Notes: a model not told the origin generated them from the letters alone. 64,000 nt of DNA from an uncultured Clostridium sp. (GCA_946487895.1 CAMLUO010000001.1:41540-105539); one strand, 5' to 3'. Counted from the first letter of the stretch, positions 231-2,812 are shown. A program made the numbers and translations.

Positions 231-259
231 TTGAAAAATAATAAAATCCAATATATAAT
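231..259 (+). promoter_or_regulatory. Candidate sigma-A type promoter for the 291-2772 cassette
   Basis: TTGAAA (231-236), a 17-nt spacer, then TATAAT (254-259), about 30 nt upstream of the AAGGAGG RBS of ORF 291. Such matches can arise by chance in AT-rich DNA. Confidence 0.4.
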
Positions 260-290
260 TGACATAACTTAATATAAGGAGGTATATATT

Positions 291-608
291 ATGAAACTAT
301 CATTAATTAATGTATTTCAGAATGCTAGTTTTAAAAAATTAGACTGGCTGCCAGATTTGTTTTTTGGAATTGGATTTTTTGTTACTTTCTTGGCTATGTT
401 TTGGTTTCGGCCCAACTTAAACTGGCTTGCAATGTTAATGCTTCCCATATTGGTCGGCCTAGTAACAGAAGGATTATTTATGGTTATACATGGAATTTGC
501 ATCTGTTTAAAAAGCGATAACCATGAAATAAGATACCATAAATTTGATGAAGAAGATGACAAAAGTTATATATCTTCTAAATCTGATGAAAGATATAATA
601 AATTCTGA
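291..608 (+). CDS. Small hypothetical membrane protein (two predicted TM helices, charged C-terminal tail)
   Basis: AAGGAGG RBS at 277-283. Two hydrophobic stretches (LFFGIGFFVTFLAMFWF and LAMLMLPILVGLVTEGLFMVIHGICI). First gene of the cassette. No family recognised. Confidence 0.5.
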   Translation: MKLSLINVFQNASFKKLDWLPDLFFGIGFFVTFLAMFWFRPNLNWLAMLMLPILVGLVTEGLFMVIHGICICLKSDNHEIRYHKFDEEDDKSYISSKSDERYNKF

Positions 609-698
609 AATTCCAAAAACAATTTGCAATAATATTGAAAGGAGGGTAGTTTTTTAGTAACAAGTAGACTCTTTTGTATTATGAAAGGATAAATTATT

Positions 699-1124
699 AT
701 GACAAAAAGAAAACTTATTAAAGTGTATGTAACTGTTGATCGGCAAAGAGCAACTCAAGTATCAATTCCAATGGATATCGATGAAGTTCAACTTAAAGCT
801 CAACTTAGAGACTTAGGGTATATTTCTTCTTATCGTAATTCCTATCTTACTACCAAAGTTTATCTTGATGATAATGGTAGTGGAAAGGAAATCTGTACTA
901 ATGAATATCGTTCATTACAAGAATTAGGAATTAAAGAAGGAAGTGGTATCATCATCGTGCCTGGAGAACCAGAGCCTAGACCTATATATAGAGATCTCTT
1001 TTCTATGAGATGCTTATATGGTTGTCCTATGGCACAAAGTGTTGAGGATGCAATCAATCAGGCTGAGAGTTATTCAGATGATGATAGTTCAGTAACAACT
1101 GGTTCTATTTCTGAACCTGATTAA
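699..1124 (+). CDS. Ubiquitin-like (beta-grasp) domain protein with a Cys-containing acidic C-terminal tail
   Basis: RBS AAAGGA. Residues 1-88 show a beta-grasp-like pattern (IKVYVTV, ATQVSIP, a helix DEVQLKAQLRDLG, KVYLDD, LQELGIKEGSGIIIVP) resembling YukD/ubiquitin-type proteins. The tail reads GEPEPRPIYRDLFSMRCLYGCPMAQSVEDAINQAESYSDDDSSVTTGSISEPD and has no terminal GG. Confidence 0.6.
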   Translation: MTKRKLIKVYVTVDRQRATQVSIPMDIDEVQLKAQLRDLGYISSYRNSYLTTKVYLDDNGSGKEICTNEYRSLQELGIKEGSGIIIVPGEPEPRPIYRDLFSMRCLYGCPMAQSVEDAINQAESYSDDDSSVTTGSISEPD

Positions 1125-1140
1125 TTGAAAGGAGAACTTA

Positions 1141-2772
1141 ATGGAAAATTACTCAACTTGTAAATATCCATTGCATACTCTCTTTTTTGAAGTAACTAGC
1201 AGATGTAATGCACTTTGCGACCATTGCGGTAGTAGATGCAATGCTAGTAAAAAGGATGAATTGTCTCCTGAAACATTCAAAAAAGTACTTGATGATGTAG
1301 CTAAAAATTTTGGTACAAAAACTATTATGCTTAACATCACAGGTGGCGAACCTCTTATGAGAAAAGATTTGTTTGAAATTACTGGATATGCAGACAGTCT
1401 TGGCTTTAAATGGGGATTAGTAACTAATGGTATGTTAATAACAGATGATGTTATAAGAAAAATGAAAGAAACACACATGTCAACAATTACAATTAGTCTT
1501 GATGGAATGAAAAAGACTCATGAAGAATTTAGACATGTACCTGGTTCTTTTGATAAAATTATTTCTGCAATTGAAAAACTTAAAAAGAGTAATTTTATTG
1601 AACACATTCAGGTTACTTTCATAGCAACTAAAAATAACATTTATGAATTACCAGAGGTTTATCGCTTATTAAGTATGTTGGAAATTGACTCACTAAGAAT
1701 TAGTGGTGTTGATCCTATTGGTAGAGCCAAAGACAATGAAGATTTAATGCTAAATCAAGAAGATTATTTTTTCCTTTTTGACTTTATGAAAAAGCATTCT
1801 ACTTCCCCACTTCCTGTGGTCTGGAGTTGTACTCATTACTTTGGTAATACTGAAAGCAGTTTAGATCCTACTGGCAAGAAATTTGCCTGCTATACTGGAA
1901 TTCATATTGCATCAGTTCTTTCTAATGGCGATATTTTTGGATGTCCTAACATTCCAAGAAGAAAAGAATTGATACAAGGCAATGTTTTAAAAGATGATTT
2001 TTGTCAAGTTTGGAAAAACAATTTCGAATTCTACAGAAATCCTAATAGAACAAGAGCCAAACAGTGTGAAGATTGTGAATATTGGGATTATTGCAAAGGA
2101 GATAGTTTTCACACCTTTGATTTTGAAACTAATATTCCACAATTTTGTTACAAGGAAATTTTTTCAAGAAAAATTTATCCAGTCAATTCTGAAGATGTAA
2201 CCTATGATAGTATTATTGCATCACTAGTTCAAAAAAATGGAACAATGAAGCATTTAACTATTAGACCATCTAAATTTGAGCCACAGAAAACAGTAATATT
2301 TACACCACAAGCTACGAAGGATTTAATTAACATTTTTCATTATGGAGAATATCATCCTAGTAACTTGTATGAGCAACAGGCTGCACTAATTGGAAACAAT
2401 TTCAATGGCATTTCTTTGGTAAAATATGTCATACCAGCAATTTTATACAATAGAGCTGGAAATATGGCTACAATGGATGATTTCTGTTTAAGTCAAATTA
2501 TGGATGAGGTTTCAATTATAAATGAAAACATATCCAAATCTGACCATATTTATCAGGATTCATATGGAGATGTCAGTTTCCTTGGATTTGCACATAGTCA
2601 TCCAGGGAATACAGATTTTAGATTTAGTATCAATGATACTAAAAATCACAAAGACTTTGTGAAACGTTTTGGTGATTTTTTGTCTATTATCCTTAATCCT
2701 CAAAAGGAAAAAATTGTGTGCTTTTCAGGAACAGATTGTGTTCAGTCAAAATTAATATTGTTATCTAAATGA
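1141..2772 (+). CDS. Radical SAM / SPASM-type enzyme fused to a C-terminal JAB/MPN (JAMM) metalloprotease-like domain
   Basis: GAAAGGAG RBS. Contains CNALCDHC (CX3CX2C), TGGEPL, and an auxiliary Cys cluster (CYTGIHIASVLSNGDIFGC, i.e. C-x12-G-x4-C, and CEDCEYWDYC). The C-terminal ~200 aa carry YEQQAALIG ... HSHPGNTDFRFSIND (nt 2593-2637), which is E...HxH-x8-S-x2-D. Confidence 0.8.
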   Translation: MENYSTCKYPLHTLFFEVTSRCNALCDHCGSRCNASKKDELSPETFKKVLDDVAKNFGTKTIMLNITGGEPLMRKDLFEITGYADSLGFKWGLVTNGMLITDDVIRKMKETHMSTITISLDGMKKTHEEFRHVPGSFDKIISAIEKLKKSNFIEHIQVTFIATKNNIYELPEVYRLLSMLEIDSLRISGVDPIGRAKDNEDLMLNQEDYFFLFDFMKKHSTSPLPVVWSCTHYFGNTESSLDPTGKKFACYTGIHIASVLSNGDIFGCPNIPRRKELIQGNVLKDDFCQVWKNNFEFYRNPNRTRAKQCEDCEYWDYCKGDSFHTFDFETNIPQFCYKEIFSRKIYPVNSEDVTYDSIIASLVQKNGTMKHLTIRPSKFEPQKTVIFTPQATKDLINIFHYGEYHPSNLYEQQAALIGNNFNGISLVKYVIPAILYNRAGNMATMDDFCLSQIMDEVSIINENISKSDHIYQDSYGDVSFLGFAHSHPGNTDFRFSINDTKNHKDFVKRFGDFLSIILNPQKEKIVCFSGTDCVQSKLILLSK

Positions 2773-2780
2773 CTACAAAA

Positions 2781-2812
2781 TGCAGATAAGCTATAATTAT
2801 AGCTTGTCTGCA
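2781..2812. terminator. Bidirectional intrinsic terminator between the convergent cassette and uvrA
   Basis: 32-nt near-perfect palindrome TGCAGATAAGCTATAA/TTATAGCTTGTCTGCA lying between the two stop codons. Confidence 0.7.

Follow-up and report, generated by a model that had tools for sequence, protein, structure and literature searches.

The locus considered here, in a 64-kb window (the whole stretch of DNA analysed), raises the question of what a ubiquitin-like protein and a radical SAM/SPASM enzyme fused to a JAMM (JAB) peptidase could do together. A first-pass annotation had described an orphan cassette made of these two genes (ORF699 and ORF1141) and a small membrane protein (ORF291), and had proposed that a single polypeptide might both modify and cleave a peptide attached to its neighbour, a combination that it could not assign to any described system. 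The three ORFs were present on the plus strand as described (Table 1), and the cassette was likewise confirmed to contain no E1 or E2 gene. The promoter read upstream of it was the best promoter-like match in positions 1-3000 (11/12 positions), and the palindromic terminator was recovered by a terminator scan as a hairpin, which is likely bidirectional and shared by ORF1141 and uvrA, the latter lying on the minus strand and ending at 2815. Moreover, the block was correctly seen as standing alone on its strand: the five other plus-strand ORFs that reach 150 aa within 1-34 kb all lie inside or overlap longer minus-strand ORFs, and none of them is gene-like. ORF291 is co-oriented with ORF699 and ORF1141 and is probably co-transcribed with them.

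Table 1. Positions of the features discussed in the text, counted from the first nucleotide of the window
Feature	Position	Strand	Description or basis
Sigma-70-like promoter TTGAAA-17-TATAAT	231..259	+	Predicted, consensus match only; upstream of the plus-strand block
ORF291	291..608	+	105 aa, two hydrophobic segments; strong RBS
ORF699	699..1124	+	141-aa putative substrate/carrier: ubiquitin-like domain, Pro-rich linker, YGCP motif, acidic tail
Ubiquitin-like beta-grasp domain, aa ~1-89	699..965	+	Part of ORF699
YGCP motif (Y107-G108-C109-P110)	1017..1028	+	Proposed modification/cleavage site; invariant in 50 ORF699 homologues
C-terminal follower tail	1029..1121	+	31 aa, acidic, proposed recognition element; predicted helix aa 115-122
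ORF1141	1141..2772	+	543-aa radical SAM/SPASM-JAMM fusion enzyme
CX3CX2C radical SAM cluster motif (C22, C26, C29)	1204..1227	+	Kept in 115/116 aligned sequences, the last row being a gap
SPASM region, seven conserved Cys (C230, C250, C268, C309, C312, C318, C336)	1828..2148	+	Pfam and alignment
JAMM/MPN+ metallopeptidase domain, aa ~385-543	2293..2769	+	Invariant residues, PDB profile search, Foldseek
JAMM catalytic residues E411; H485-x-H487-x8-S496-x2-D499	2371-2373; 2593-2637	+	Alignment
16-bp hairpin	2779..2814	.	Terminator scan; between the convergent ORF1141 and uvrA

Both halves of ORF1141 retain intact predicted catalytic residues. The radical SAM/SPASM assignment was confirmed with Pfam, where Radical_SAM (PF04055) covered aa 17-175 (1e-21; 78 bits against a cut-off of 29.5 bits) and SPASM (PF13186) scored 22.7 bits, above its gathering cut-off of 21.5 bits. 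All the motifs named before were located in the protein: CNALCDHC (aa 22-29), TGGEPL (aa 67-72; the GGE motif of the SAM-binding core), C250-x12-G-x4-C268, C309EDCEYWDYC318, YEQQAALIG (aa 410-418) and HSHPGNTDFRFSIND (aa 485-499, nt 2593-2637). Each of the seven SPASM cysteines was kept in 115-116 of the 116 aligned sequences, and C33, just downstream of the CX3CX2C motif, was also conserved. Their arrangement follows the pattern by which SPASM proteins bind auxiliary 4Fe-4S clusters, CX9-15GX4C...CX2CX5C...C, except that the fourth Cys normally seen in CX2CX5CX3C is missing and C336 lies 17 residues further on. Full-length homologues were about 500-570 aa long, with identities down to 43%. 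The closest solved homologue of this half was the sactionine synthase CteB (5wgg, 1.5e-17), which aligned over the full core (aa 12-332 of ORF1141 against 97-427 of CteB), and ORF1141 begins where the N-terminal region of CteB, which we take to be its RRE domain, ends. No RRE (PqqD-like) domain was found, either at the N-terminus of ORF1141 in the comparison with CteB or as a conserved small partner gene. The best curated model, NCBIfam TIGR04133 (rSAM_w_lipo), matched the whole radical SAM/SPASM part with 273.8 bits, below its curated cut-off of 425 bits; judged by sequence, ORF1141 is a sister group of this family rather than a member. In the NCBIfam scan it fell short of all curated radical SAM cut-offs, and homology does not constrain its chemistry, the radical SAM half being nearest, by its matches, to peptide-modifying SPASM enzymes.

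The C-terminal half had been read as a JAMM peptidase, and three independent results agreed with this reading. First, E411, H485, H487, S496 and D499 were invariant among 115 full-length homologues, and, set against E...HxH-x7-S-x2-D, the zinc and catalytic motif of MEROPS family M67, the spacer of 8 residues (rather than 7) from HxH to S proved to be real and conserved throughout the family. Second, the family profile found JAMM deubiquitinases only when searched against the PDB sequence set, the best being AMSH-LP (2.8e-4). Third, the structure check previously suggested was run on an AlphaFold model of the C-terminal region (pLDDT 87.7), which gave 212 Foldseek matches at E≤1e-3, and the best 50 of these were MPN/JAMM-containing entries. 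The top matches included the Rpn11 homologue 6fnn (2e-9; about 170 of 231 model residues aligned, TM 0.77 on the target), CSN6, BRCC36, AMSH and PfJAMM1, and a bacterial ubiquitin-like/deubiquitinase complex (8tyx) was also found among the structural neighbours. In this model, the stretch that links the SPASM and JAMM regions seems to belong to the MPN fold. The Pfam Prok-JAB match of ORF1141 was below threshold (13.9 bits against a 25-bit cut-off); nevertheless, the JAMM assignment stands because of the invariant residues, the PDB profile and the fold match, and more distant relatives from the family-profile search pass PF01398 (JAB) or PF14464.

For ORF699, the beta-grasp/ubiquitin fold claimed for the N-terminal domain was borne out. 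A total of 135 homologues were found, none of them with an informative source name, and in all close relatives (56-95% identity) the gene lies directly upstream of the enzyme gene. After this domain, a Pro-rich linker of about 20 residues precedes the YGCP motif, which occurs nowhere else in the window, and in the tail that follows V115, E123, Y125, S130 and G135 are invariant within the ORF699 clade. Residues 106-114, spanning the motif, were predicted to be disordered (pLDDT <50), which suits an enzyme-accessible site. The C-terminal Gly-Gly of ubiquitin-like modifiers and sulfur carriers is absent from ORF699, in which Y-G is followed by 33 residues (CP and the 31-aa tail).

The gene-neighbourhood census of radical SAM-JAB fusions that had been proposed was run on about 100 fetched gut and rumen loci (1.76 M six-frame residues), in which clustering at 70% identity gave 20 enzyme lineages. 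YGCP occurred 129 times in these loci against 3.1 times expected. Most occurrences (106) were on the same strand as the enzyme gene and within 2.6 kb of it, and the majority of the remainder came from loci where a contig end cuts the enzyme gene. In 19 of the 20 lineages, one to six same-strand YGCP genes directly adjoined the fusion enzyme, while the 4.2-kb contig of lineage L063 carried none. The genomic coupling of the fusion enzyme with YGCP-tail genes, its constant partner, is strict and lineage-wide, and the invariant YGCP motif and tail linking the two genes are the main new result. Among 92 non-redundant neighbour proteins, Y, G, C and P were each 100% conserved, between 11 and 34 aa (median 20) before the C-terminus, and the residue before YG was L (51%), Y (39%) or H (8%). 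After the motif, hydrophobic residues recurred at +8 and +11 and a Tyr at +18 (55%), positions of the tail being common to the acidic and basic classes. The net charge of the tail ranged from about -8 to +8 between lineages with YGCP unchanged, and the net charge of the enzyme did not co-vary with it in a simple docking test. The N-terminal carrier parts were mutually unrelated and comprised ubiquitin-like domains, Zn-ribbons with ubiquitin-like domains, lipoprotein/TM-anchored peptides and amphipathic peptides. With carriers so diverse, the ubiquitin-like protein did not hold as the defining partner, being one among several, and a framing by JAB and ubiquitin-like pairs (CysO/Mec+, Bil) is too narrow, because most lineages carry the YGCP tail on lipoprotein/TM-anchored peptides, amphipathic peptides or Zn-ribbon proteins. 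The feature by which RiPP loci are recognised, adjacent precursor genes with a common conserved recognition/modification sequence, was found in the same 19 lineages.

A third component was not found among 115 neighbour genes from the 20 lineages, which matched 121 Pfam families, none recurring more than three times. For ORF291, which had been counted in the cassette, tblastn gave no match across 103 related loci, and Pfam, NCBIfam and PADLOC gave no family match; it is placed outside the system because it has no homologue in those loci.

The reading preferred here is that ORF699 and ORF1141 probably form a self-contained, two-gene RiPP-type post-translational maturation module, in which the YGCP site would be modified and then cut. 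ORF699 would be the substrate, with the ubiquitin-like domain as its carrier and the C-proximal [C]-[L/Y/H]-Y-G-C-P followed by the 31-residue tail as its functional element. ORF1141 would dock on this C-terminal tail, a mode of recognition suggested by the lack of the N-terminal RRE domain of CteB. In a first step, the radical SAM/SPASM half would carry out radical chemistry at the YGCP site, where the substrate Cys may become a ligand of an auxiliary cluster, as with CteB-type enzymes; in a second step, the fused JAMM half would hydrolyse a peptide bond at the motif and remove the tail, modification presumably preceding cleavage. There is good reason to regard YGCP as the site that is modified or cleaved. 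As to the chemistry, the leading options are a crosslink centred on the Cys (either a thioether or a bond between Tyr and Cys) and tyramine splicing at X-Y-G; the crosslink is the favoured guess, although a doubtful one. A cut after the invariant Gly (Y-G/C-P) is put forward tentatively, because the characterised JAMM enzymes, to our knowledge, all cut after Gly. However, in these enzymes P2 is normally Gly too, like P1, and the Tyr found at P2 of the proposed site counts against such a cleavage. Lipoprotein-type carriers would need to be processed before export, which counts against the preferred reading as a whole. The earlier idea of one polypeptide modifying and cleaving a neighbour-attached peptide fits the data and is strengthened by the YGCP motif and tail, both in ORF699 and across the lineages of the census, but the ubiquitin-like tether that was part of it is not general.

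With the CteB (5wgg)/PapB sactipeptide and ranthipeptide maturases, the module has in common a radical SAM core with a multi-Cys SPASM domain and an adjacent Cys-containing ribosomal precursor. In contrast to them, ORF1141 lacks an N-terminal RRE and has a C-terminal JAMM peptidase, and its putative substrates present one short invariant YGCP and a C-terminal follower, not an N-terminal leader, on carriers that can be folded proteins. The name of TIGR04133 points to a pairing with lipoproteins, and several YGCP carriers are lipoprotein-like; however, this 350-position model has no JAMM domain, and the one lipoprotein-type YGCP carrier that was scanned matched no curated partner family. In bottromycin-type follower RiPPs, the recognition sequence also lies on the C-terminal side of the site that is modified, and a metallohydrolase removes it (PMC10885120), although this is an amidohydrolase there and would be a JAMM enzyme here, and the enzyme class and chemistry differ as well. 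The same 2023 review of RiPP proteases (PMC10885120) does not mention JAMM, M67, JAB or MPN.

An alternative, considered unlikely, is that the radical SAM half works as a tyramine splicease at X-Y-G, with the JAMM domain then trimming the product. The invariant Y-G after a variable residue is exactly the XYG splice motif, and splicing at LYG is proven in RasA (PMC11626197). The likeness to the spliceotide systems (PlpX/PlpY/PlpA, RhaX/RhaA and RasX/RasA) lies in the motif, with radical SAM action on X-Y-G there and [L/Y/H]-Y-G found here; in addition, binary systems of a splicease and a precursor, with no accessory protein and with whole proteins as possible substrates, are known (PMC11414181, PMC11626197). 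On the other hand, the spliceotide sites consulted do not share the invariant C-P that follows the Gly here, and the systems described with them have no fused protease and carry the recognition helix in the N-terminal leader or in the Y protein. Furthermore, ORF1141 reached only 106 bits on TIGR04103 against a cut-off of 725 bits, a score matched by many unrelated peptide maturases. This nif11-class maturase model presumably covers PlpX.

It is also rather improbable that the product is the released C-terminal peptide, that is, the modified YGCP with its tail, in which case the N-terminal modules would be leaders, chaperones or anchors and the JAMM domain would cut N-terminal to the motif. Such a scheme would follow standard RiPP logic, where a protease frees a short modified peptide; 2-6 small precursor genes in tandem occur at many of the related loci, much as in bacteriocin-like ones, and many tails are strongly cationic. 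However, the wide range of tail charge around a fixed YGCP is more like a recognition element than a common bioactive core, no transporter or immunity gene was conserved near the enzyme in the 20 lineages, and what RiPP precursors usually conserve is their recognition sequence, not the product.

With a low probability, the YGCP tail would be a portable tag that the enzyme converts into a reactive or unusual C-terminus (a thiocarboxylate or thioester from the adjacent Cys, or an alpha-ketoamide). If so, on the ubiquitin-like carrier of this window a ubiquitin-fold protein would in effect be activated independently of an E1, ready for conjugation or sulfur transfer, and on lipoprotein/TM carriers the same group would be installed at the membrane. 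Very unlikely is an E1-less ubiquitin-like system, in which the JAMM domain would expose a ...Y-G terminus and the radical SAM half would use the adjacent Cys to activate the C-terminus, for instance as a thiocarboxylate or thioester, which would then serve in sulfur transfer or conjugation. ORF699 is indeed ubiquitin-like, and QbsE/QbsD and CysO/Mec+ are established cases in which a JAMM enzyme trims a ...GG-CF or ...GG-Cys extension on a beta-grasp sulfur carrier; in both, a ubiquitin-fold protein with Gly then Cys is cut after the Gly. Moreover, in the carrier of lineage L097 the YG follows the apparent last strand, like the GG of ubiquitin (a likeness of sequence pattern only), and a ThiF-family gene adjoins the module in 2 of the 20 lineages. 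QbsE/QbsD and CysO/Mec+ rely on an E1 of MoeB/ThiF type and on a terminal GG, and they lack a radical SAM enzyme, whereas here YG is followed by the 31-aa extension, an E1 gene is near in those two lineages only and most carriers are not ubiquitin-like.

Little credence is given to an anSME-like oxidation of the Cys to formylglycine by the radical SAM half in a C-P-x-x-K context. The anSMEs are SPASM radical SAM enzymes acting on the Cys of a C-x-P-x-R motif, and the invariant Cys is here followed by Pro and often then by a basic residue, but the spacing is C-P and not C-x-P, no sulfatase-like carrier was found among the YGCP proteins and anSME models were not among the top NCBIfam matches of ORF1141. 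Finally, an anti-phage defence module, viperin-like in its radical SAM half and with a JAB as in CBASS Cap3 or Bil, is scarcely credible: PADLOC gave pVip matches (3e-24) and a weak JAB match (0.009), which did not qualify ORF1141 as a defence gene, and mobile-element genes adjoin the pair in some relatives, but the pVip matches reflect generic similarity of the radical SAM core in a protein that also has a full SPASM domain and putative peptide substrates, the neighbours in the 20 lineages were mostly housekeeping genes with no recurring defence family, and 2.9 M viral contigs held one degraded copy only, with an integrase-like gene beside it. Bil/Bub and CBASS Cap2/Cap3 likewise combine a ubiquitin-like protein with a JAB peptidase; in contrast, the present module has no E1/E2, is not in a defence island and has its JAB fused to a radical SAM enzyme.

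In agreement with the first-pass annotation, none of the described systems matched, and no curated family and no searchable paper was found to describe a radical SAM-JAMM and YGCP module, which in gut Clostridia looks like an undescribed peptide or protein maturation system. The chromosomal surroundings of the ORF699-ORF1141 pair differ from relative to relative, and the two genes move together between these contexts; the mobile-element genes adjoining the pair in some relatives are, in our reading of their sequences, presumably a relaxase and a replication protein. The case for a foreign origin rests on this changing context of the two-gene unit and not on the CGG codons earlier taken as its sign, which are present in frame but weak evidence, CGG making up 2 of the cassette's 30 Arg codons and 2 of the 220 in core genes. 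Similarly, the repeat bordering the cassette is a genuine dispersed element (66-134), but it is a genome-wide REP-like palindrome and not specific to the cassette. The G+C content of the cassette was 31.3%, compared with 27.9% in the core genes.

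The cassette proposed in the first-pass annotation was found as claimed, with three co-oriented ORFs on the + strand (ORF291, ORF699 and ORF1141), their ribosome-binding sites, a promoter-like site and a downstream hairpin. Up to position 34 kb, no further + strand ORF with a minimum length of 150 aa was gene-like, the five others listed all lying within or overlapping longer − strand ORFs. No RNA element was found inside or near the cassette in an Rfam scan.

Features of the cassette in window numbering
Feature	Position	Strand	Description
Putative promoter TTGAAA-17-TATAAT	231-259		11/12 positions; best promoter-like site of the region
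ORF291	291-608	+	105 aa; purine-rich ribosome-binding site
ORF699	699-1124	+	141 aa; purine-rich ribosome-binding site
ORF1141	1141-2772	+	543 aa; purine-rich ribosome-binding site
16-bp hairpin	2779-2814		Between ORF1141 and the convergent uvrA

To characterize ORF1141, both halves of the protein were compared with curated models and solved structures. The Pfam models Radical_SAM (aa 17-175, 1e-21) and, barely over threshold, SPASM (aa 250-313) were matched, and Prok-JAB gave a sub-threshold match only. The top curated model was TIGR04133 ‘rSAM_w_lipo’ (274 bits vs. a cut-off of 425 bits), followed by AhbD, NirJ and many peptide maturases. A total of 115 full-length homologues showed conservation of C22/C26/C29 and C33, together with seven SPASM cysteines (C230, C250, C268, C309, C312, C318 and C336). 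The nearest solved structure by sequence was the sactionine synthase CteB (5wgg, 1.5e−17), in which residues 97-427 aligned with aa 12-332 of ORF1141. The first ~96 residues of CteB, presumably its recognition (RRE) domain, therefore have no counterpart in ORF1141. As for the C-terminal third, E411, H485, H487, S496 and D499 were invariant in the homologues, and a profile of this region searched against 177,635 PDB sequences retrieved JAMM deubiquitinases only, with AMSH-LP as the best match (2.8e−4), followed by Sst2, STAMBP, an Rpn11-like protein and BRCC36. The 8-residue spacer of the signature is due to a one-residue insertion, seen in the alignment to JAMM deubiquitinases. Furthermore, the AlphaFold model of the same region (pLDDT 87.7) had 212 Foldseek matches at E≤1e−3, the top ones including a Caldiarchaeum Rpn11 homologue, CSN6, Rpn11, BRCC36, AMSH, PfJAMM1 and a bacterial ubiquitin-like/deubiquitinase complex, and remoter relatives of this JAMM domain exceeded Pfam's own JAB thresholds. 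Given the conserved cluster cysteines, the invariant JAMM residues and the MPN/JAMM matches, ORF1141 is a radical SAM/SPASM-JAMM fusion with the residues of both catalytic centres intact; the domain calls made previously thus stand, including that of the JAMM domain by profile, AlphaFold model and Foldseek.

The genes adjacent to distant ORF1141 homologues were found to share the motif (C)-[L/Y]-Y-G-C-P with ORF699, in whose family Y107, G108, C109 and P110 (YGCP) are invariant, preceded by a Pro-rich linker of variable sequence and followed by an acidic tail that is conserved. A total of 80 extra metagenome loci were then added by means of the JAMM-domain profile, and every locus was scanned in six frames, giving 129 YGCP occurrences vs. 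3.1 expected from composition in 1.76 M translated residues. Of those, 106 were on the strand of the enzyme and at most 2.6 kb from its gene, on the upstream or the downstream side; almost all of the remaining ones appeared in loci with the enzyme gene cut by the contig end, and two or three seemed unrelated. In the gene-neighbourhood census of fusion enzymes that had been proposed earlier, a ubiquitin-like neighbour was present in some lineages and a YGCP gene in 19 of 20, with lineages defined by grouping the enzymes at 70% identity.

The 92 non-redundant YGCP proteins ranged from 28 to 306 aa, with up to six in tandem in some loci. Each of the four residues was 100% conserved, position −1 was L, Y or H, position −2 was Cys in 53%, and the motif was commonly followed by N/M, then S/A, then K. 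A tail was always present after YGCP (11-34 residues, median 20), with recurrent hydrophobic residues at +8 and +11 and a Tyr at +18 in 55% of the proteins, including the invariant Y125 of ORF699. The N-terminal parts were mutually unrelated, comprising ORF699-type ubiquitin-like domains, Zn-ribbon proteins, peptides with a lipoprotein-type signal or TM anchor and peptides with an amphipathic N-terminal helix. In profile comparisons, the Zn-ribbon protein of relative locus L017 was the sole carrier among those compared that aligned with the ORF699 family through the ubiquitin-like domain (89% probability); the carriers of loci L015 and L097 aligned at the motif only or not significantly. The 62 further proteins retrieved with a profile of the tail were all small peptides lacking annotation, none of them a carrier with a recognised domain, and when 15 diverse YGCP carriers were compared with Pfam and NCBIfam together with ORF699 and ORF291, the only matches were to Zn-ribbons. 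Thus, the ubiquitin-like domain of ORF699 assigned in the first-pass annotation is real, but it is one carrier among many rather than the defining partner of the enzyme. Paralogues of this domain (~33-35% identity) without the YGCP tail were also observed near the module in two relative loci (L005:4926-5270 and L006:8849-9187). The conserved SPASM Cys loop of ORF1141 itself (aa 266-270, window ~1936-1950) reads F-G-C-P-N, and Y-G-C-P in the homologue of locus L038, resembling the Y-G-C-P-N of the substrate; the likeness may point to binding of an auxiliary cluster by the substrate Cys, or be a coincidence.

Regarding the boundaries of the module, no recurrent third gene was found by all-against-all clustering of 1,890 ORFs or by Pfam scans of 115 neighbour genes from the 20 lineages. 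These neighbours matched 121 Pfam families, each at most three times; ThiF was seen in two lineages, and three had an additional radical SAM gene. ORF291, previously taken as a member of the cassette, was rejected as a component for having a homologue in none of 103 related loci. The claim that the cassette is devoid of E1/E2 genes held. In two of the 20 lineages, a ThiF-family (E1-like) gene, which we take to resemble TcdA, directly adjoins the module (L041:2746-3510 and L060:7870-8505), an adjacency that may be fortuitous or reflect a functional connection in some cases. Other local arrangements were seen as well: at L017:5813-7437 (also in L018 and L019), the YGCP genes of this one lineage lie after genes for a second, small radical SAM protein (Fer4_12 plus radical SAM, 247 aa), similar in size to activases, and for a 243-aa protein without known family, and at L013:3140-4292 and L033:2204-3356 another apparent pair, formed by a radical SAM protein (294 aa) and an 81-aa peptide rich in GGCGG repeats, lies just upstream of the module.

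The fusion enzyme was kept at full length down to 43% identity and occurred in MAGs of uncultured gut Clostridia, the sampled sources including human, mouse, goat and rabbit. The family is rare, as its profile yielded 248 matches at E≤1e−3 and 22 at E≤1e−30 in 1.84 billion representative proteins. The context of the two-gene unit varied even in close relatives, being located beside pheST in one set and, in others, next to ORFs that were read as lexA, hemN, asnS or relaxase and replication genes of plasmid type; the uvrA neighbourhood was common only to the near-identical MAG L001. The two-gene unit is thus mobile, as its different genomic context even among close relatives shows. Hence, the foreign origin suggested in the first-pass annotation is supported by the context comparison, but its CGG-codon argument carries little weight, the codon and GC evidence being weak. 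In addition, an IMG/VR contig (L103:427-967) harboured a degraded module, in which a ubiquitin-like gene breaks off before the YGCP tail and continues into the last ~100 enzyme codons, implying an internal deletion next to an integrase-like gene (2891-3700, called by sequence reading).

The simplest reading of these sequence patterns is that the module would be a self-contained RiPP-like maturation pair, in which the YGCP-tail cassette would serve as the substrate element. The enzyme would probably dock on the tail, since it is without an RRE; charge complementarity between enzyme and tail showed no correlation (Spearman rho 0.08-0.18). The radical SAM/SPASM half would then modify the YGCP motif and the JAMM half would cut; the earlier idea of one polypeptide both modifying and cleaving stands as a proposal. 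Cleavage is tentatively placed after the invariant Gly, an assignment that is possible though somewhat doubtful, because Gly is, to our knowledge, the residue that precedes the cut in characterised JAMM enzymes, including QbsD and Mec+, which act at Gly-Cys junctions of beta-grasp proteins. As for the chemistry, the closest homologue CteB, the seven-Cys SPASM domain, the invariant Cys and the analogy with three-residue motifs like WGK would point to a Cys-centred crosslink or thioether as one possibility. Alternatively, the radical SAM half might be a tyramine splicease, which is considered unlikely but a serious rival; the likeness lies in the substrate motif, a variable residue followed by invariant Y-G being exactly the pattern of spliceotide splice sites, of which LYG is a proven one (PMC11626197), and two-gene spliceases acting on proteins exist (PMC11414181). 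Less probable are formylglycine formation at the motif and an activation of the C-terminus of the ubiquitin-like protein that needs no E1. A role in defence was rejected as unlikely after a PADLOC scan, a viral-contig search and the Pfam census of neighbours.

The module brings together three component classes that are familiar (radical SAM/SPASM maturases of peptides, JAMM peptidases and ubiquitin-like folds) in a combination that is not. In Pfam, NCBIfam and PADLOC, the enzyme exceeds the threshold of no curated model that would cover it, and the substrates have no such model at all; similarly, full-text searches of open-access papers and bioRxiv found neither a radical SAM-JAB/JAMM fusion nor YGCP nor TIGR04133 described, and a 2023 review of RiPP proteases makes no mention of JAMM, M67, JAB or MPN (PMC10885120). 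The module was filed as radical-SAM-dependent ribosomal peptide/protein maturation, and the interpretation given in the first-pass annotation is, as a whole, partly supported. If correct, this reading would establish a new family of such systems among the gut Clostridia of humans and animals, unusual in three respects: a deubiquitinase-type JAMM peptidase recruited to and fused with a radical SAM maturase, an invariant four-residue site with its C-terminal follower grafted on very different carriers (including a ubiquitin-fold protein), and the sufficiency of two genes. Moreover, a compact tail-recognising enzyme able to modify as well as cut a short tag carried by folded proteins would be an attractive protein-engineering tool, as spliceases already are, and a ubiquitin-like protein associated with a JAMM domain without E1 would bear on how bacterial ubiquitin-like systems were assembled.

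Finally, several elements were observed around the cassette and elsewhere in the window. The dispersed repeat bordering the cassette (66-134) was confirmed, but as one member of a family of REP-like intergenic palindromes (~33 nt, consensus ACAGGGATTAGGGGACGGTCCTAAAAATCCCTG) with direct and inverted copies also at 13108-13140, 38748-38869 and 55681-55707, and is therefore uninformative about the cassette. A 6S RNA (Rfam RF00013, 86.5 bits) at 38867-39059 on the − strand directly adjoins a pair of these repeats. The uvrA gene (− strand) is broken into two ORFs (2815-3969 and 3908-5734) overlapping at 3908-3969, a frameshift explained by eye by one extra base in ...ATGGCACAG[C]GGAACAGCTGAA...; the sequence is identical, and the gene likewise split, in the 99%-identical contig of MAG L001. 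Possible explanations are a pseudogene specific to this lineage, an assembly error common to both contigs and programmed frameshifting. Furthermore, a cluster of paralogous proteins at 59271-63919 (− strand), starting with MENASKALI(I/M)AG followed by a hydrophobic helix, is the source of repeat families D1-D3 and D6; these proteins are encoded beside a multi-pass membrane protein and resemble pilin-type proteins by eye.
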